32,000 nt of DNA from assembly GCF_001548115.1 (NCBI RefSeq), contig NZ_AP014821.1:1707262-1739261 (forward strand), in the 5' to 3' direction. The stretch's first letter is position 1. Each line of letters begins with the position of its first letter. The notes beneath the pieces are model-generated. The model did no database searches. It was not told where the DNA came from and worked only from the letters and a program-made list of their open reading frames with translations. Below are positions 7,251 to 30,216 of the stretch, one piece after another. The DNA is from Geminocystis sp. NIES-3709 (GTDB lineage: Bacteria; Cyanobacteriota; Cyanobacteriia; Cyanobacteriales; Cyanobacteriaceae). Both the position numbers and the translations under genes were made by a program.

Positions 7251-8846
7251 GTGTTATATCTGGCAGAAGTAAAAAGTCAAAATAGAGGATTCGTTGGTGG
7301 CTTTAAAACAGAGCTAAAACTATTGGCTTCTCAAGGAACGGATCAAACGTGGAATGCAGTGGCAGGAGAAGAAATTGTCATTAGTGATACCATTGCAGAT
7401 CAAACGGGGAAAGGAACTCTTTATATTCTCAATGTAGATAATAATAAACAAATACAGGGTTCTCCTGAATTGGCAGGAAATCGTGTTGTTAACTATCTCC
7501 GTCATCTTTCTCGCACTCTAGAAAAATCCAAAGAGCAAGAAACAGAAATTGAAGAATGGAAAACTTCCTTAAAAATACAAGGAGAGGAAATAGCGAGAAG
7601 ACAAGCAGAGTTAGATCAAGTACAACAGCTATTACAACAGCAACAAGATGAATTCGCTCAGTTAGAAAAAGAAAAAGAAAATTTGAGTGGAGCATGGGAA
7701 CAATTAAGAGAACAACAACGCTTAATTGCTCAAAATCAGGCTGTAAAAGTAGAAATGCAAAGTAAATTAAATTCTATTTTAGGAGATGTTGGTGATGCTT
7801 CTTTAGGGAGAAATAATCTACAACAGATTTCTTTTAGTGTTGATAATCAACAGAAGTTGTTGGATGATTATTGGCAAAGTGTGAACTCAATAAAAAGTTC
7901 TTTAGAACAAAAACAAGTAGAATTAACACAGAAAAAACAAAATATTGAACAACGCCGCCAAGAGGTACAGTCTTTACAAAATAACTTACAAAAAGCGATC
8001 ATTGGTTTACAATCAGATCAAAGTTTGTTAAGGGAAAAAGAAACCTCTTTACGACAACTCAATACATATTTAGATGCGATCGCTAGATTAGACCAGGAAG
8101 TTTCTTTCTTGGCTGATGATGTCGATGATATGGATATAGATTTTCAAGGCTTAGAAAGTATGCCTTTAGGAAATTTAGAAGAAATAGTGAACAAGATACA
8201 ACAAGAGACAGCAAAACTGGTTAATTTTGTCAACTTACAAGAAGAAGAATTGACTTTACAAGCCAATGAAGTAAAAGAAGTTCAAAGCAAACTGGATCAA
8301 GCTACAGACGTTGATAAATTTTCTTTAGAAACAGAATTAGCTGACGCACAAGAAGCAATGAAGTTGTTAAATGAGACTTTAGTAGGACAAAGAAGAACTT
8401 TAAAGAAACAACAAAAAATGCTTAATGAACATTTCAAAATTTTGAGTCGTCGTAAAGGAGTAATGGACGTGGACTTTGCCGAAACGGTTAATCTTAGACC
8501 AATGTTAGGAGAAATTGAAACTCAACGGAGTTTAATTCAACATAATAGGGATAAACTTGCTCAAGAAGTCAATGTTTTAAGACAAAGTACTACTCAAATT
8601 GAACAAAGTGTTTCCGTACAAAAACAACAGTATGACGAACAATTTAATCAATTTCAACAAGAGGAAGAAGGATATTTGCAATTGTATAAAGAAGTAGCTC
8701 AAATTGAATCTCAAATGAAGTTTTTAGAGCAGGGTTTACATCCCATTCAAGAACAATTAAACAATATTCGTAATAGTATGCAAGGGTTGGAACAATTTAA
8801 CCAAAAATTTACCCATGTTATAGATGAATTGCGATCGATGTTTTAA
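7251..8846 (+). CDS. hmpF: Long coiled-coil protein, HmpF-like (pilus motility/taxis protein)
   Basis: The GTG start gives MLYLAEVKSQNRGF...ELKLLA, an N-terminus I recall as typical of cyanobacterial HmpF. The remaining ~450 aa are Q/E/L/K-rich heptad-like coiled coil. Confidence 0.55.
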   Translation: MLYLAEVKSQNRGFVGGFKTELKLLASQGTDQTWNAVAGEEIVISDTIADQTGKGTLYILNVDNNKQIQGSPELAGNRVVNYLRHLSRTLEKSKEQETEIEEWKTSLKIQGEEIARRQAELDQVQQLLQQQQDEFAQLEKEKENLSGAWEQLREQQRLIAQNQAVKVEMQSKLNSILGDVGDASLGRNNLQQISFSVDNQQKLLDDYWQSVNSIKSSLEQKQVELTQKKQNIEQRRQEVQSLQNNLQKAIIGLQSDQSLLREKETSLRQLNTYLDAIARLDQEVSFLADDVDDMDIDFQGLESMPLGNLEEIVNKIQQETAKLVNFVNLQEEELTLQANEVKEVQSKLDQATDVDKFSLETELADAQEAMKLLNETLVGQRRTLKKQQKMLNEHFKILSRRKGVMDVDFAETVNLRPMLGEIETQRSLIQHNRDKLAQEVNVLRQSTTQIEQSVSVQKQQYDEQFNQFQQEEEGYLQLYKEVAQIESQMKFLEQGLHPIQEQLNNIRNSMQGLEQFNQKFTHVIDELRSMF

Positions 8847-11218: not shown

Positions 11219-11839
11219 ATGATGAAAAAATTAAAAGTTTGGCTAGTAAGTTTGTTGTGCATTGCAACTTTTTTAATTGCATCTCCAGTTTTAGCCGATA
11301 GAATCGCCGAAAAAAGTCCAGATTATCCCATTGTGGTAGAGAATTTGAATGCTTTATTGACTCTAAAATCAGATCCTCAACAAACAGAATATACTCCAGA
11401 AGAATTAAAACAGGCTATTAGCGAATTAGAATTTCAAAAATATGTTTTAGAAACCTCTGAAGATTGGGGAATTTGCCGTAATGAAACGGGAAAAAATCTT
11501 GCCATTTACGCACGTAATCAAAAAAAAGCAACTCCTAATACTCTATTTTACTTAGGTGATGGGCAGGAAACTGATGATAATTGGGACTGTGAAGCCGTTT
11601 ATATTCCTAACGATGTTAATGTCGCATCTTTAGAACTTCCTGATGGTCAACCATCGGCAGTTAGAATTCTTGACGGTACAAATTTAACCATCAGTACTAA
11701 TCCTGACACGGGAGAATTATTACTAGATGCTCCTTCTGCCTTAATTGAAGTCGTTGATGCCACTGATACAACCTTGTCAATTCCTAATGTGACTCAAACA
11801 GAAATTGATGCACAAGTAGCTAATGCACCTATTGATTAA
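11219..11839 (+). CDS. Secreted hypothetical protein
   Basis: The N-terminus is signal-peptide-like (MMKKLKVWLVSLLCIATFLIASPVLA|D). The mature part is acidic and has two Cys residues. I recognise no family. Confidence 0.5.
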   Translation: MMKKLKVWLVSLLCIATFLIASPVLADRIAEKSPDYPIVVENLNALLTLKSDPQQTEYTPEELKQAISELEFQKYVLETSEDWGICRNETGKNLAIYARNQKKATPNTLFYLGDGQETDDNWDCEAVYIPNDVNVASLELPDGQPSAVRILDGTNLTISTNPDTGELLLDAPSALIEVVDATDTTLSIPNVTQTEIDAQVANAPID

Positions 11840-22646: not shown

Positions 22647-23939
22647 CTGATAATTCCAAGAACCTTGAAAAGCTATACAATTGCTGAAATCCCCAAAAAA
22701 TCCTGCTGAAAATGCTCTTTGATTACATCTGTTAGTCGAGTTGATGATTGAATTTTTCTCATTATTTGCGTTAATGATAAACGACGAAAATTTGCCATAA
22801 ACTGTATTGATAATAACATTAAATACATTATTATCTTAATTAATAATCCTGTATAAATTCCTTGTTTCCTTAATTTCATCTCGGCAATTTTTAGCACCGA
22901 TTTTAAAATTTTCCAAAACTGTTCAATAATATTGTGTGCAGTCCATGTCCGCCATATTTCCGCTCCTCTCAATGATATACTACTTAAATCTATCAACAAA
23001 TAACAATTACTATTACTTTTTTGAAAAAACAATAAATTGAGAGTTCCAAAAGTTGGATTTGATAATTTTTGTCTCACACAAGGTACATCAATTCCCCATT
23101 GATTTTCTTGATAATCTACTCTTTTTTGACCTTCACTTCCTTTGCCTTTAAAGTTCTCTCCTTCAAATACATAACTGCCTTTTCCAGCCATAATAATTTT
23201 GGTGAATCCTAGTTCAGATAATTGCTCTTTTAATTCTTTTGATGCATACCAAGAATCCAGAGTAATTGGATATTTAGTAATATCTATATTTTCTTTGAGA
23301 CATTCTTCTTTAATTTGTCTTAACATCCCAACTAATATACTCGGTTTATTTGTATTTTTTCTTCCTTGTTTAGAACAAAATATTAATCCAATTGGTATTG
23401 CTTTTCCCTTAATTGTTAATATTATTCCTAATATATTTTGTCCATTTACCACTTTTTTCCAACGTCCACTATACCAATTCCATGTACAACGTAATCTCTT
23501 TCCTACTCTGTCAATAACACTATCATCTACCGCAAGTGTTATATTTGCTCTTGATTGAGTAACAATACTTTTTTGTTCGATGATTTGCAACTGTTCCACT
23601 GCAACATTAATCATCATTAATTTTAAAACTTTTCGGAGTTTATATAATGTCCAAGAAGAAATTTCTGTATAGATTTTTTGGTGACTAACACCAAGCAAAT
23701 CTGCTAATTGTTTGGGATTAAAACAGCCATAAGCATGACTAATTGCTAAAATCATAATTGCTTCAAATGCTTCAATTTTATGAGAGCGAAATAATTTACT
23801 AAATTTGACAAAGAAAAGCTGAATTATGTTAGCCAGATGAAATCTCATGGTTAATTAAAAATATTTAGAGCATTTTCATTTAAGCATATGTCTTGATTCT
23901 TAACACTTTCAGCTTTTCAGTCATTTCCAGAATTGTCAG
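22647..23939 (-). mobile_element. Intact 1293-bp IS (IS4/IS701-like superfamily)
   Basis: Imperfect ~28-bp terminal inverted repeats are ctgataattcc...tgaaaagct and ctgacaattct...tgaaaagct. A 5-bp direct repeat TATTA sits at 22642-46 and 23940-44. There is one transposase ORF. Confidence 0.75.
22673..23848 (-). CDS. DDE transposase (IS4/IS701-like)
   Basis: The 391-aa ORF has candidate catalytic residues in LAVDDSV, TLDSWYAS and HNIIEQFWKILK, an IS4-type YREK-like block. Confidence 0.85.
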   Translation of the reverse strand: MRFHLANIIQLFFVKFSKLFRSHKIEAFEAIMILAISHAYGCFNPKQLADLLGVSHQKIYTEISSWTLYKLRKVLKLMMINVAVEQLQIIEQKSIVTQSRANITLAVDDSVIDRVGKRLRCTWNWYSGRWKKVVNGQNILGIILTIKGKAIPIGLIFCSKQGRKNTNKPSILVGMLRQIKEECLKENIDITKYPITLDSWYASKELKEQLSELGFTKIIMAGKGSYVFEGENFKGKGSEGQKRVDYQENQWGIDVPCVRQKLSNPTFGTLNLLFFQKSNSNCYLLIDLSSISLRGAEIWRTWTAHNIIEQFWKILKSVLKIAEMKLRKQGIYTGLLIKIIMYLMLLSIQFMANFRRLSLTQIMRKIQSSTRLTDVIKEHFQQDFLGISAIV

Positions 23940-25149: not shown

Positions 25150-26892
25150 TTATGCAACAAAGCTTTTTGGAATTGTAAAAAAGAATTTTGATCCTTTTCC
25201 TAGATCTGATTCTACCCAGATTTTACCACCGTGACGAGTAACAATTTTTTGACATAAAGCTAAACCAATACCAGTGCCTTTGTATTTATCTTGGGTGTGT
25301 AGTCTCTGAAAGACGACAAAAATTCTCTCTTGAAACTCTGGTGAAATACCAATGCCATTATCTTCGACACAGAATAACCATTGATCAATTAAAGATTGTA
25401 CCGTTAAATTGATTGTTAGTGGTCGATCGCTATGAAACTTCAGAGAATTACTGATTAAGTTCTGCCATAGTTGAGTCAGTTGAAATTTATCTCCCATTAT
25501 TATAGGTAATTGTTTATAGGTAATCTCTGCATTTGTTTCTTTAATAGATATTTGTAAAATTTCTAAAATATCTTGAATAATTTCATTACAGTTTACTAGA
25601 GAAAATTCCTGTCCTCTAGTTTGAATTCTTGATAAAGATAAGAGATCTTTTATTAACTGTTTCATTCGATTAGAAGCAGACATTATCAAATCTAAATATA
25701 GTTGTCCTTCTTCATCTATTTGATGATAATATTCTTCTTTTAAAAGTTCAGAAAAACTGCTAATAGTTCTTAATGGTTCTTGTAAATCATGGGAAGCGAC
25801 GTAAGCAAATTGTTCTAATTCTTCATTCGATCGTTGTAATTCTTTATTCCAAGTTTTTAGCTCTTTTTGCATTCCATAAGTTTCGATCGCTTTGACAAAT
25901 GTTTCATTAATTAATCTTGTAAAAATCAAATCAACTCTATCCCATTTTTTAGGCTTTTTAATAGAAATAAACATTAAAAATCCTATAAAGGAATCCCCAT
26001 AAATCAAAGGATATGCTAAAAGAGATTTAATATTATTTTGTAGAATATAAGATTCTTTTAAGAAATTATATTTTTTATCATTTTCCAAGTTATTGATATA
26101 AACTACATTAAAATCTTTTAAAATATCTATTAAAAACAATAATTCATTGTTACAATTAATTTTTTTTGTATTTTCACCATAAAAATACTGATCTTGACCA
26201 AGTTTAGTAGTAGATAATCCTTTAAGAAATAAATAACTTTGATCAATGGCTAATACTTCAGTTATTTTTTTTAAAGAAATATTAAATTTATCTTCGATCT
26301 CATTAGTAGAAACTTTAATAAACAAACTAGAAATATAAGTAATTAATTGCTCTAATTTTATTTTATATTTAAGTCGTTCATTAATTTTTTTTATTTGTAA
26401 AGTTCTTTTTTCTACTATTTCCTCTAATTCTTGATTTAAAGTTTTTAACTGTAATTCTATTACCTGCTTTTCTTGAATACGAGTTTCTAAATCTTGATTA
26501 AGAATACTTAATTTTTCTGGTGTTGGTAACGCTAAAGCCATAGGAATAATGGGAAATAACTCAAAAGCCGTCAAAACTGACACTAACGCTGTCAATCCTT
26601 TAATTAATCCAGATAACCAGTAAAGGGGATACCAAATCGTTATTATTCCCATAACATGAGTTAAACCACAAAATAGAATAAAACAGCTAAATAGTAAAAA
26701 TATATAAGTGAAGGGAATATCATTTCTTTGACGCACAAAATAAATTAACATAAAAGGTATCGAAAAATAGGCTATCCCTATAAACATATCTGAAAGTAAA
26801 TGTAGCCAGACGAGAGAAGACTGCCATAAATAACAATGTCCATGAGGGATATAATAGTTAGAGGAAAAAATACTAATAGTGGAGAATAACAT
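25150..26892 (-). CDS. Sensor histidine kinase with an ETR1-like ethylene-binding-type membrane domain, coiled coil, GAF, HisKA and HATPase domains
   Basis: Residues 33-53, LSDMFIGIAYFSIPFMLIYFV, match ETR1 ISDFFIAIAYFSIPLELIYFV as I recall it. FCGLTH (C75, H79) aligns with ETR1 C65 and H69. The H-box is ASHDLQEPLR (H368), the N-box is NLISNSLKF, and the G-boxes are DNGIGI and GTGIGL. Confidence 0.88.
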   Translation of the reverse strand: MLFSTISIFSSNYYIPHGHCYLWQSSLVWLHLLSDMFIGIAYFSIPFMLIYFVRQRNDIPFTYIFLLFSCFILFCGLTHVMGIITIWYPLYWLSGLIKGLTALVSVLTAFELFPIIPMALALPTPEKLSILNQDLETRIQEKQVIELQLKTLNQELEEIVEKRTLQIKKINERLKYKIKLEQLITYISSLFIKVSTNEIEDKFNISLKKITEVLAIDQSYLFLKGLSTTKLGQDQYFYGENTKKINCNNELLFLIDILKDFNVVYINNLENDKKYNFLKESYILQNNIKSLLAYPLIYGDSFIGFLMFISIKKPKKWDRVDLIFTRLINETFVKAIETYGMQKELKTWNKELQRSNEELEQFAYVASHDLQEPLRTISSFSELLKEEYYHQIDEEGQLYLDLIMSASNRMKQLIKDLLSLSRIQTRGQEFSLVNCNEIIQDILEILQISIKETNAEITYKQLPIIMGDKFQLTQLWQNLISNSLKFHSDRPLTINLTVQSLIDQWLFCVEDNGIGISPEFQERIFVVFQRLHTQDKYKGTGIGLALCQKIVTRHGGKIWVESDLGKGSKFFFTIPKSFVA

Positions 26893-26961
26893 TTATTTCT
26901 CAAATTTGGTTTTTACTATAAATGTAATAATTTTAAAGCATTTAAGAAGCAAGATAAAATT

Positions 26962-28881
26962 ATGAAAATTCTTTTAGTGGAAGATGATCAACGTTTAGGA
27001 AAACTAATACATGACTATTTAGTTAATGAATCAGCCGTAGTTGAAATAGTTAATACTGGATTTAATATAGCAGAAAAACTGAGTAAACAATGTTATGACA
27101 TTTTAATATTAGATGTCATGTTACCCAAAAAAAATGGTATTGATATTTGTCGAGAATTACGATCGAATAATGTAGATATTGCCATCTTATTTATTACTGC
27201 TTTAAATAATAAAATAGATAAAATTAAAGCCTTTGAATCTGGTGCAGATGATTACCTAATTAAACCCTTCGATTTTGAGGAATTATTAGCTAGAGTAAAA
27301 GCTTTACTAAGACGTGAAAAAAAGACTGAACTTTGTAATCTAACATGGAATAATTTAGTTATGTATCCTGAAGAAAAAAAAGTGATATATAATCATAATT
27401 ATTTACATTTAACTCCCACAGAATTTAAAATTTTACAAATTTTTTTAGAAACTCCTAATAAAGTATTTAATACACAATCAATTATCGATCGACTTTGGGA
27501 AATTGATACCACACCAACGGATAGTACTTTAAGAACTCATATTAAATCTTTAAGAAAAAAATTAGAAGAAGTAGGATTAGATAAAAACTTTATAGAAACT
27601 CTATATGGTATGGGTTATCGTTTAAAACAAGAGAGAGAAAAAAGATCAGAAAAACAACATCAATCTTTTAATAATAATAAAAAAAATATAGATAAAATTT
27701 CTGATTTATTAGAAAAAAATATTAGAGAAAATAAAGAAAATCAATTTCAAAATTTAATCAAACAAATGTGGTTAGATAATCAAGAAACCGTTAGTAAAGA
27801 TTGTCAGGAATTATCTAATTATATACAGGGTAATAATAATATAGATATTAATAAAGCTATAAATATAGCCCATAATTTTGTTGGTTTTTTAGGAAGTCTT
27901 GGTTTCGACACGGCTAGTAAAATTTCTAAAAATATAGAAAATTTATTAAAAGAAAATCAGAATAATTTATCTGATAAGAAAGTAAAATTCAAGATACTTA
28001 CATTACTTGATACCTTAGAAAAAAATTTATTTCCCAATGGAAAGCAATGTATTCCTAAAAAGGAAAAAAAAGAAAAAATATTGCCTAAAAATAAAATAGA
28101 AATACTCGTTATTGATGAAGATATAAAAATAGCTAATAATCTAATCCTTTTTATGGATAATCCTCAAGTGGTTTTTCACTTTGTTCACTCGATCGTATTT
28201 GGGATAAAATATCTCAAAGAAAGACAATATGACGTGGTAATTTTAGAAACTCACTGGGAAAAATCTTCATCTGATCAATTAACTGATATATTAAACTTTT
28301 TAAAAGAAAAAAAAGAAGAAACTAAGACAATAATTTATAGTAAAAATGATACTTTAGAGAACAGATTATATTGTTCAAAATATCCTATAAGTGCTTTTTT
28401 AAATAAAACTAATACTCTTGATGTTTTATGGGAAAATATTTTTAATATTTTGTCTAATAATCACAGCACCTCTAATATTACGCCTCTTTATGACATTTTA
28501 GTTATTGATGATGATATTAGATTTACAGAGGTTTTAAAACAGAAATTAATTAGTAATAGATTGCCCATTAATATCAATATTATTTCTGATAGTGAAATTT
28601 TTTTAGAAGAGATAAAAAGAATTAAACCTCAATTAATTATTTTGGATTTACAAATGCCAAAATTAGATGGATTAGACATTTGTAAAATTATCAAAAAGGA
28701 TCCTTTTTTACAAAATATACCAATTATTTTTTTAACAGGAAATCTCGAACCTGATATTATGAATCAATTTGTTGAAGCTGGAGCAGATGATTTTATCAGT
28801 AAGTCTAAAATTGATTTAGAGTTATACCCTAGAATTATGACCCATCTTAAGAGATTTAATTTATCACATTTAGTTACTTAA
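26962..28881 (+). CDS. Multi-domain response regulator: REC, OmpR-type winged helix, HPt-like, REC (Glu at acceptor position), REC
   Basis: REC1 has EDD, D51, T79 and K101. The wHTH covers aa 125-222 and ends in GMGYRLK. The HPt-like motif is AHNFVGFLGSLG (H304). REC2 has VIDED, then VVILE (E429), S460 and K482. REC3 has DDD, ILD(562)LQMP, T592 and K614. Confidence 0.85.
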   Translation: MKILLVEDDQRLGKLIHDYLVNESAVVEIVNTGFNIAEKLSKQCYDILILDVMLPKKNGIDICRELRSNNVDIAILFITALNNKIDKIKAFESGADDYLIKPFDFEELLARVKALLRREKKTELCNLTWNNLVMYPEEKKVIYNHNYLHLTPTEFKILQIFLETPNKVFNTQSIIDRLWEIDTTPTDSTLRTHIKSLRKKLEEVGLDKNFIETLYGMGYRLKQEREKRSEKQHQSFNNNKKNIDKISDLLEKNIRENKENQFQNLIKQMWLDNQETVSKDCQELSNYIQGNNNIDINKAINIAHNFVGFLGSLGFDTASKISKNIENLLKENQNNLSDKKVKFKILTLLDTLEKNLFPNGKQCIPKKEKKEKILPKNKIEILVIDEDIKIANNLILFMDNPQVVFHFVHSIVFGIKYLKERQYDVVILETHWEKSSSDQLTDILNFLKEKKEETKTIIYSKNDTLENRLYCSKYPISAFLNKTNTLDVLWENIFNILSNNHSTSNITPLYDILVIDDDIRFTEVLKQKLISNRLPININIISDSEIFLEEIKRIKPQLIILDLQMPKLDGLDICKIIKKDPFLQNIPIIFLTGNLEPDIMNQFVEAGADDFISKSKIDLELYPRIMTHLKRFNLSHLVT

Positions 28882-28894
28882 TTTTTTAGATTAT

Positions 28895-29293
28895 ATGATG
28901 AAAATTTTTACCAATAATAGTACTATTACAATTTTAGTTATTGATGATAGTAAAGAGATTCAACAACTAATTAAAATGTCCTTAGAAATGATTAATCAAT
29001 GGCAAGTTATTAGTGCTAATTCTGGCTTACAGGGATTAAAAATAGCCATAGAAAAAGATGATTTAGATTTAATTTTATTAGATTATTTAATGCCCCAAAA
29101 TAAAGGAGATGAAATCATCAAAAAGCTACAAGCAAATCCAAAAACTGCATCTATTCCCGTTATCTTTTTAACGGCACAATCAGATGAACAATTTCACTGG
29201 AAAAAATTAGGAGCAAAAGGTATTATCTATAAGCCTTTTAACCCTATCAATTTAGGCGATTTAATCCGAGATATTTTAGAATGTCGAATGTAA
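28895..29293 (+). CDS. Single-domain (CheY-like) response regulator
   Basis: Receiver motifs are VIDDS, ILLDYLMP, FLTAQ and YKPF. It starts 13 nt after the preceding gene, so co-transcription is likely. An alternative ATG lies at 28898. Confidence 0.9.
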   Translation: MMKIFTNNSTITILVIDDSKEIQQLIKMSLEMINQWQVISANSGLQGLKIAIEKDDLDLILLDYLMPQNKGDEIIKKLQANPKTASIPVIFLTAQSDEQFHWKKLGAKGIIYKPFNPINLGDLIRDILECRM

Positions 29294-29502: not shown

Positions 29503-30216
29503 ATGCTTGAAAAACGATCGCAACCATATCAACCATTACTACTAAGAATTATTCATAATTTTCAGGGGATATTTGTCATTTTGGCAATGATAACCGCTTT
29601 TTGGACATACAACACTTATGATGGACGATGGGGTAAAATATTATGGCTTTCTGATTGGCAAGAAATAGAGGGAATTCATGGAACTTTTGGCTTATTTGCA
29701 ATGTTAATATTACCCTTTTTTGTTATCTATGTGTTTCATTTTGGAAATAAAAAACTTATTCAAAGTAATAGTATTAGTCAACTAAAATTAATTAATAAGC
29801 CTATTTGGTGGTATTCTCTTCATCGCATCACTAATACATTTATAATTTTTGCTTTAACATTTTCAGTATTTACAGGAAAAATGATGGATGAAAAATGGTT
29901 GCCAAAAAGAGAATTAAATCATTTTTGGTACTATTTACATTTAATATCTCTTATTATCATAACTTTAGCCGTTGGGTTACATTTACTTATGAGTATAAAA
30001 ATCGGAGGCTATCCTCTACTGCTATCAATGATTGAATCTCAGATTAGAGAAAAAGATAGCTGGAAATCATACCGAAAAAAGATTGAGGATTACCAAAAAA
30101 ATTGGCTAACATATATAAAAAAAGAGTGGCTAACCTTACCTACTCTTTTTCAAATACTAGAACTAATAATATTATTAATAATTATTACAGCTTGGGTTAT
30201 TTCATTATTAAAATAA
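29503..30216 (+). CDS. Cytochrome b561-like (bacterial cytochrome b, Ni/Fe-hydrogenase CytB-type) membrane protein with a C-terminal extension
   Basis: Four TM helices each carry a His: LLRIIHNF, GIHGTFG, LHRITN and YYLHLISL...GLHLL. A charged segment and a fifth TM helix follow. The family call comes from the His/TM pattern only. Confidence 0.5.
   Translation: MLEKRSQPYQPLLLRIIHNFQGIFVILAMITAFWTYNTYDGRWGKILWLSDWQEIEGIHGTFGLFAMLILPFFVIYVFHFGNKKLIQSNSISQLKLINKPIWWYSLHRITNTFIIFALTFSVFTGKMMDEKWLPKRELNHFWYYLHLISLIIITLAVGLHLLMSIKIGGYPLLLSMIESQIREKDSWKSYRKKIEDYQKNWLTYIKKEWLTLPTLFQILELIILLIIITAWVISLLK

Follow-up and report, generated by a model that had tools for sequence, protein, structure and literature searches.

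A multidomain OmpR-class regulator of Geminocystis sp. NIES-3709 very probably belongs to the RcaC family and may act through an Rca-like phosphorelay

The RcaC design of response regulator was first described in the 1990s. It is part of the Rca system of type-3 chromatic acclimation (CA3), a phosphorelay made up of the cyanobacteriochrome kinase RcaE, the single-domain receiver RcaF, and the OmpR-class regulator RcaC. The roles of D51, of H316 in the HPt domain, and of D576 in RcaC of F. diplosiphon were reportedly examined by mutation (by Li and Kehoe, in 2005 and 2008), and D576 is said to have only a minor role in vivo. The titles of papers on the system call RcaE-RcaF-RcaC a "four-step phosphorelay." RcaC has been described as a chromatic-acclimation regulator with a winged helix and three CheY-like receivers (PMC4390838), and in the CA3 strain Synechococcus sp. 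PCC 7335 it activates pcyA and cpc2 (PMC8256508). RfpB, which acts in far-red photoacclimation, is a DNA-binding regulator with a CheY-like receiver at each end, and its partners are a phytochrome kinase and the CheY-like protein RfpC (PMC4390838). RfpB appears to follow the same design as RcaC. By description, RfpA/RfpB/RfpC has the same three-gene logic of a kinase, a small receiver, and a large multidomain regulator, but its input is a red/far-red phytochrome and some RfpB proteins are without the C-terminal ~300 amino acids (aa) (PMC4390838). Here, we analyzed a 32,000-nucleotide (nt) stretch of the Geminocystis sp. NIES-3709 genome (the window) that contains a gene for a large response regulator (positions 26962 to 28881, + strand). 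Judged by its sequence, this regulator very probably belongs with RcaC among the "complex" response regulators of cyanobacteria.

We compared the regulator with the rca cluster of PCC 7335. A genome scan with patterns drawn from the OmpR portion of the alignment gave 80 loci, some 65 of them ordinary OmpR regulators, and did not recover F. diplosiphon; the rca cluster was reached by gene context through PCC 7335 (locus L014). The order of genes in this cluster is a CBS-GAF-PAS-HisKA-HATPase kinase, a 127-aa receiver, a regulator (P0196), pcyA, cpcB/cpcA, and phycobilisome linkers, which fits the published Rca system of PCC 7335. P0196 (636 aa) has the same Pfam set as the NIES-3709 regulator, with two receiver stretches detected, Trans_reg_C, and Hpt at 27.1 bits. 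By BLASTP the two proteins are colinear over aa 1-614 (E = 4e-68, 26% identity), and D51, H304 (AHNFVGFLG in the regulator versus AHSLAGTLG in P0196), and D562 are all matched. The order REC, OmpR winged helix, HPt, degenerate receiver, and REC is common to the regulator and to RcaC of F. diplosiphon and PCC 7335, and in each system a gene for a single-domain receiver and a sensor kinase lie close by. Its architecture is that of RcaC itself; the layout is not new, and the protein is a further member of a known family.

We also observed rcaE-rcaF-rcaC-like clusters adjoining phycobilisome genes at two scanned loci, L014 (5656-11850) and L087 (4004-15088). The neighbors are pcyA, cpcBA, and linkers in L014, from PCC 7335, and a rod linker in L087, from an uncultured cyanobacterium. 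The GAF domain of the L014 kinase has Cys-Leu at the place of the usual bilin-binding Cys-His.

The regulator is encoded by one unbroken frame of 639 codons. Its parts are given below with the basis for each; disorder was read from the AlphaFold2 confidence score (predicted local distance difference test [pLDDT]).

26962 to 27318, + strand: REC1, the N-terminal receiver, aa 1-119, with acidic pair D8/D9, acceptor D51, T79, and K101 (Pfam, AlphaFold2, conservation)
27340 to 27624, + strand: winged-helix DNA-binding domain of the OmpR/PhoB type, aa 127-221 (Pfam Trans_reg_C, Foldseek)
27625 to 27732, + strand: linker rich in Lys, Asn, and Glu, aa 222-257, with disorder predicted for most of it (pLDDT of <50 at aa 226-253)
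27733 to 28029, + strand: HPt four-helix bundle, aa 258-356 (Pfam, profile match, AlphaFold2, Foldseek, conservation)
28096 to 28455, + strand: REC2, a degenerate (pseudo-)receiver, aa 379-498, with D385/E386, E429 at the acceptor position, S460, and K482 (Pfam, AlphaFold2)
28489 to 28875, + strand: REC3, the canonical C-terminal receiver, aa 510-638, with D516/D517, acceptor D562, T592, and K614 (Pfam, conservation)

A Pfam scan of the whole protein found three Response_reg stretches, Trans_reg_C at aa 148-221 (E = 9e-23), and Hpt at aa 275-352. REC1, the HPt segment, the middle receiver, and REC3 were also scanned singly, and REC1 alone scored 91.6 bits against Response_reg. Against NCBIfam, aa 1-222 scored 190 to 228 bits to PhoB, CreB, BaeR, and RpaB, all below the equivalog cutoffs. 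These N-terminal 222 aa form a complete regulator of the OmpR type, like the ordinary OmpR/PhoB regulators RpaA, RpaB, and PhoB, but the protein here continues for 417 residues that hold the HPt and two receivers. AlphaFold2, with 25 homologues as the input alignment, modeled the full regulator at a mean pLDDT of 79. In the model, aa 1-119, 379-498, and 510-638 each form a complete (beta-alpha)5 fold and aa 127-221 form a winged helix; aa 226-253 are disordered, and four long helices lie within aa 243-356. Its predicted template modeling score (pTM) is 0.39, too low for a conclusion on which receiver faces H304. The best Foldseek matches of the full model were full-length OmpR/PhoB regulators, including RpaA 9dvt, 1kgs, PrrA, and MtrA, and it also matched the tandem receivers of PleD (~270 to 290 residues). 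In the alignment of 25 full-length homologues (27 to 71% identity to the regulator), the invariant residues are D8, D9, D51, T79, K101, H304, G308, G314, D516, D517, and K614; D562 is almost invariant. The linker differs in both sequence and length.

The HPt domain is the part of the chain on which a phosphorelay would depend. The predicted phosphohistidine is H304 (nt 27871-27873), inside the motif AHNFVGFLGSLG. The isolated segment (aa 258-362) scored 28.5 bits against Pfam Hpt, above the cutoff, and all 19 of the homologous segments scanned also matched Hpt. We then compared a profile of these 19 segments with the Protein Data Bank (PDB). It matched the CheA P1 domains 2ld6 and 1tqg (E of ~2e-10), and the His that is invariant in the family (H304 in the regulator) fell on a His of the CheA motif HTLKG. 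Modeled alone, the segment folds as a four-helix bundle (pLDDT of 93.6, pTM of 0.84). The best PDB matches of this model in Foldseek were HPt domains: Shewanella 3myf, P1 of CheA3 (3kyi; template modeling [TM] score of 0.73) and of CheA (1tqg; TM score of 0.71), HptB, YojN, BarA, and plant AHPs. The E values of these matches were weak (0.2 to 1), as is usual for helical bundles, and we put weight instead on the identity of the matches, the TM scores, and the sequence profile. In common with the HPt domains of CheA (P1), ArcB, BarA, Shewanella 3myf, HptB, and plant AHPs, the segment has a four-helix bundle and a His on helix 2 within H-x-x-x-G, a likeness that in predicted structure amounts to TM scores of 0.6 to 0.73. 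It differs from them in its place, since it lies between other domains inside a DNA-binding response regulator, whereas those domains are at the end of a kinase or are free proteins.

We considered whether the C-terminal 417 aa could be vestigial or purely structural, in which case D51 would be phosphorylated directly, as in an ordinary regulator of the OmpR type, and the HPt His would go unused. The whole-protein Hpt score is marginal (24.5 bits versus a curated cutoff of 24.6), and the middle receiver is degenerate. However, H304, G308, and G314 are invariant down to sequences of 27 to 31% identity, every one of the homologous segments matches Hpt, and the catalytic residues of REC3 are all kept. 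In addition, the HPt-REC-REC module is present in at least 64 distinct clusters at 50% identity. This conservation of residues and module points to purifying selection on phosphotransfer chemistry, and we regard a vestigial tail as very improbable.

The two receivers behind the HPt differ from one another. REC3 scanned singly scored 79.5 bits against Response_reg, while REC2 scored 29.3 bits, under the cutoff of 30.2. However, REC2 covers positions 1-109 of the 111 in the profile, and this near-complete coverage indicates a real but degenerate receiver. Its acceptor column (aa 429, nt 28246-28248) holds Glu in the six closest sequences of the Geminocystis clade; the outliers P0029 and P0030 have Trp and Asp. 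Most distant relatives carry Asp there, and others carry Asn, Lys, Trp, or Ser. Because the column varies by subfamily and is mostly Asp, the middle receiver may still accept phosphate in many relatives. The Stanieria/Pleurocapsales group has Lys at this position. L014, the sole member of the RcaC clade in the alignment, has Asn, in contrast to the Glu of the six closest Geminocystis-clade sequences. The pair of receivers resembles the tandem receivers of PleD, in which one member is also degenerate. In PleD the active receiver precedes the degenerate one and the output is GGDEF, whereas the regulator has the two in the reverse order and no enzyme behind them. By analogy, the likeness suggests an adaptor or dimerization role for the degenerate member of the pair. 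Separately, we observed that a Planktothrix tepida homologue labeled "Protein RcaC" (P0082) has Gly in place of the REC3 acceptor Asp, at position 539. Since this protein retains D51 and the HPt His, its sequence suggests that the C-terminal phosphosite is dispensable in some lineages.

These results agree with most of what a first-pass annotation had read from the DNA alone. That annotation had proposed a single polypeptide with a REC and an OmpR winged helix to about aa 222, a further 417 aa that began with a linker, an HPt-like segment with H304, a degenerate receiver, and a canonical receiver with D562. The frame is uninterrupted; the N-terminal part was recovered by Pfam, AlphaFold2, and Foldseek; and the low-confidence linker lies where it was placed. 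The middle segment both folds and scores as an HPt, and the bit scores and the E429 acceptor separate the two receivers as had been suggested. The annotation had further held that the architecture was not described before, and on this point it was wrong: a common, known architecture, which it had named among the outcomes that would overturn it, is what we observed.

The regulator is 100% identical to a "response regulator" of Geminocystis sp. NIES-3709, whose contig of 4.15 Mb comes from a complete genome. Its colinear, full-length homologues in cyanobacteria number in the hundreds. Almost all of the best 120 matches in the protein search were full length (97 to 100% coverage, 600 to 690 aa), and more than 100 full-length homologues have the same precomputed Pfam set (REC, Trans_reg_C, and Hpt). 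Many of them are named [quoted passage not shown] by JGI, and one Planktothrix homologue is labeled "Protein RcaC" by its source. We then searched with aa 240-639 only (HPt-REC-REC) using HMMER, exhaustively over 1.84 billion cluster representatives, and found 78 matches at an E value of ≤1e-30. Among the best 150 matches, 73 were unbroken from the HPt His through REC3. In 64 of these 73, the match starts at residues 230-335, the place expected behind an N-terminal REC and winged helix; 34 of the 64 proteins are of ≤700 aa, and 30 are longer.

An assembly or frameshift fusion of separate genes, which the annotation had raised as a way in which its reading could fail, is hardly conceivable, and so is a new, undescribed architecture. 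Colinear homologues of 600 to 690 aa occur in many independent genomes and metagenomes, and the identical protein lies on the contig of a complete genome. Such full-length conservation across many genomes rules out chance, frameshift, and assembly fusion. The architecture has been described for RcaC, is found in the rca cluster of PCC 7335, is common in cyanobacteria, and is in the literature (PMC4390838). The main value of this analysis is negative: the supposedly unprecedented architecture is the RcaC design, present in many cyanobacterial lineages. In a separate observation, many family members add a C-terminal GGDEF (diguanylate cyclase) or other domains and reach 750 to 1500 aa (P0032, P0036, P0039, P0053, P0075, and others). 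Those with GGDEF combine synthesis of cyclic di-GMP with DNA binding in a single regulator.

Three features flank or adjoin the regulator gene and bear on how it might be used.

25150 to 26892, - strand: sensor histidine kinase of 580 aa with ETR1_N, GAF, HisKA, and HATPase_c, the candidate input kinase (Pfam)
26893 to 26961, no strand: 69-bp divergent spacer between kinase and regulator, presumed to hold both promoters (sequence)
28895 to 29293, + strand: single-domain receiver gene, 132 aa (Pfam Response_reg only)

We asked whether the regulator is the RcaC of chromatic acclimation or a relative of it. In a neighbor-joining tree, a quick distance tree without support values, the Geminocystis/Cyanobacterium clade forms a deep branch apart from the RcaC clade of PCC 7335 (25 to 27% identity), and the regulator does not group with RcaC of CA3 strains. 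At the locus there is neither a green/red cyanobacteriochrome partner nor a link to phycocyanin or phycoerythrin genes, and the 32,000-nt window has no phycobilisome genes and no pcyA. The rest of the window is housekeeping (coproporphyrinogen oxidase, dnaN, a ubiE-like gene, an NDH-1 subunit, and transporters). The gene order also differs, with a divergent kinase, then the regulator, then the receiver, as opposed to rcaE-rcaF-rcaC. The membrane domain of the kinase is of the ethylene-receptor type and its GAF is a plain one, whereas the Rca kinase is a green/red cyanobacteriochrome. Chromatic acclimation in Geminocystis is ascribed to CcaS/CcaR (PMC4417701, PMC5737509). From the separate clade, the ETR1_N kinase, the lack of phycobilisome genes, and the role ascribed to CcaS/CcaR, we conclude that the regulator is, as judged by sequence and context, an RcaC-family paralogue in a subfamily specific to Geminocystis/Cyanobacterium and not the chromatic-acclimation RcaC orthologue. 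Inputs and targets are known for only one or two members of the family (RcaC and probably RfpB), both of which respond to light color.

The small receiver gene starts 13 nt past the stop codon of the regulator. Its product is RcaF-like and, as read from sequence, a probable phosphorelay partner of the regulator. It matches the PCC 7335 receiver in the RcaF position at 39% identity (E = 8e-29), and a receiver is kept directly downstream of the regulator in three of the five related loci (G. herdmanii, Geminocystis CENA526, and a Geminocystis metagenome-assembled genome [MAG]). In the distant loci L004, L008, L009, L012, and L014, the best match to the 132-aa receiver is a single receiver of 40 to 46% identity that is always beside a kinase and within a few kilobases of the RcaC-like gene; the other receivers in those loci have ~30 to 36% identity. 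A kinase and a small receiver are also near RcaC-like genes in L086, and in Planktothrix the order is regulator, 2128-aa PAS/GAF kinase, and 126-aa receiver. Thus, the recurring unit across these neighborhoods is a kinase, a small receiver, and an RcaC-like regulator, with varied sensors. Because the Geminocystis subfamily adjoins an ethylene-receptor-type kinase and not a bilin photoreceptor, this unit suggests a general cyanobacterial cassette that is reused for signals other than light.

We propose that the regulator, as a member of the RcaC family, works through an Rca-like phosphorelay, and we put this explanation as a whole at roughly 60%, by analogy with Rca. A sensor histidine kinase, for which the divergently encoded ETR1_N-GAF protein is the candidate, would autophosphorylate and pass the phosphoryl group from its His to the Asp of the small RcaF-like receiver. 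The small receiver would then hand it to H304 of the internal HPt, and H304 would pass it to D51 of REC1, which would favor dimerization and DNA binding by the winged helix. D562 of REC3 could be a second entry, an exit or sink, or a modulatory site. The middle receiver, with E429, would be unable to accept phosphate and could pair with REC3 and serve as a structural adaptor, in the manner of the PleD receivers. What we infer, beyond the family membership and domain anatomy observed above, is the phosphotransfer order, which kinase feeds the relay, and which genes the regulator targets. The first-pass annotation had placed every element of a His-Asp-His-Asp relay except the kinase, together with the DNA-binding output, in the one chain. 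The domains are indeed all there, but the relay is probably not self-contained, given the separate RcaF-like receiver gene directly downstream.

The specific wiring, including the adjacent kinase, is more tentative and falls a little short of even odds. The kinase matches ETR1_N, the three-helix membrane domain of the ETR1 type, over positions 2-97 of 97 (E = 2e-38) and has no receiver domain. We compared it with the N terminus of Arabidopsis ETR1, and D25, Y32, I35, P36, I62, C65, and H69, the copper- and ethylene-binding residues of AtETR1, all align with identical residues. Seven residues are needed to bind ethylene (PMC6682694). The arrangement ETR1_N-GAF-HisKA-HATPase_c is the architecture of cyanobacterial GeiEtr1 and of plant ERS-type receptors (PMC6682694), and the kinase here shares it with GeiEtr1 and plant ERS1. 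As read from its sequence, the GAF domain is without the Cys-His motif of bilin-binding GAF domains. In Geminocystis CENA526 we found the same divergent arrangement of kinase and regulator, at 74% identity. The 69-bp spacer is partly conserved across three Geminocystis genomes, including a TATAAAT-like element, and its alignment across these three genomes revealed no convincing direct repeat or binding site. A scan for promoters and terminators was uninformative in this AT-rich DNA: promoter-like sites were rarer than in shuffled controls, and no terminator was seen.

Several observations weigh against the proposed relay or parts of it. Identity to bona fide RcaC is only ~26% and the regulator is on a separate branch, so functional details of RcaC may not carry over. 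The downstream receiver is missing beside the homologues of two more distant relatives (L083 and L085). In G. herdmanii the kinase is cut to its first 38 codons, and this stub is fused in frame to a ThiD2/TMP-TENI (thiamine-phosphate-synthase-like) gene (L001 4678-5910, - strand). The CENA526 kinase (L003 6183-7913, - strand) has an in-frame stop for the Trp of the window's kinase, just before HisKA, which could be a pseudogene mutation or a draft-assembly error. Thus, only one of the three genomes inspected has an intact kinase, whereas all three have kept the regulator and small receiver whole.

These losses raise the alternative that the adjacent ethylene-receptor-like kinase is not cognate, that input comes from one or more kinases elsewhere, and that the adjacency is historical. 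The regulator is intact in both genomes with a damaged kinase, and beside the homologues in L083, L084, and L085 there is no such kinase and the regulator is again intact. Since the regulator and receiver persist where the kinase is lost, another kinase may be the real input or an extra one. However, the kinase is intact in the window and has the 69-bp divergent spacer in common with the regulator. The adjacency is evidently ancestral in the group of NIES-3709, CENA526, and herdmanii, and the CENA526 stop in a draft genome could be a sequencing error. We consider input from elsewhere to be a serious contender but unlikely. In sister genomes, the kinase orthologue seems to be undergoing decay, and its loss in relatives weakens, but does not remove, the case for it as the cognate input.

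A different route for the phosphoryl group would leave the regulator's anatomy unchanged. The kinase could phosphorylate REC3 at D562, from which the group would move within or between subunits to H304 and D51, a self-contained Asp-His-Asp relay of the kind that the annotation had in mind, and the small receiver would be a sink or a branch output. D562, D516, D517, T592, and K614 make up a fully canonical and conserved active site, and the adjacent small receiver is absent from the two related genomes mentioned above. RcaF has been reported to bind a sigma factor, so small receivers can have outputs of their own (PMC13079394). However, the small receiver is tightly linked to the regulator here and recurs by RcaC-like genes in distant cyanobacteria. 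Moreover, with Gly at the REC3 acceptor in a homologue that its source names RcaC, phosphorylation of REC3 is not universally needed, and the minor in vivo role reported for D576 of RcaC points the same way. Entry through D562 is distinctly unlikely, and we favor entry through the RcaF-like receiver.

The narrowest form of the proposal is that the ETR1_N-GAF kinase, the RcaF-like receiver, and the regulator make up one four-step relay that carries ethylene, or another ligand of a copper-loaded ETR1 domain, to transcription. We regard this as doubtful. If it were true, it would be a bacterial ethylene-receptor pathway with an RcaC-type DNA-binding output, unlike SynEtr1/UirS-UirR, and one that is apparently being lost in sister strains. 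If the link to the kinase holds, the regulator would make ethylene binding by a bacterial domain tractable through a transcriptional readout. The only mildly novel point of the locus is that a kinase of the ethylene-receptor type may be coupled with an RcaC-type relay.

Past the small receiver gene, the window encodes a 237-aa cytochrome b561-like membrane protein (Ni_hydr_CYTB; 29503-30216, + strand). A copy of 56% identity is downstream of the same gene pair in the Geminocystis MAG (L084 10066-10779), past an extra 557-aa gene without a Pfam match. The cytochrome b561-like gene may be a conserved neighbor or a target. Three open reading frames of the window had no Pfam match at an E value of ≤1e-5: 7251-8846 (+ strand, 531 aa), 11219-11839 (+ strand, 206 aa), and 22673-23848 (- strand, 391 aa).

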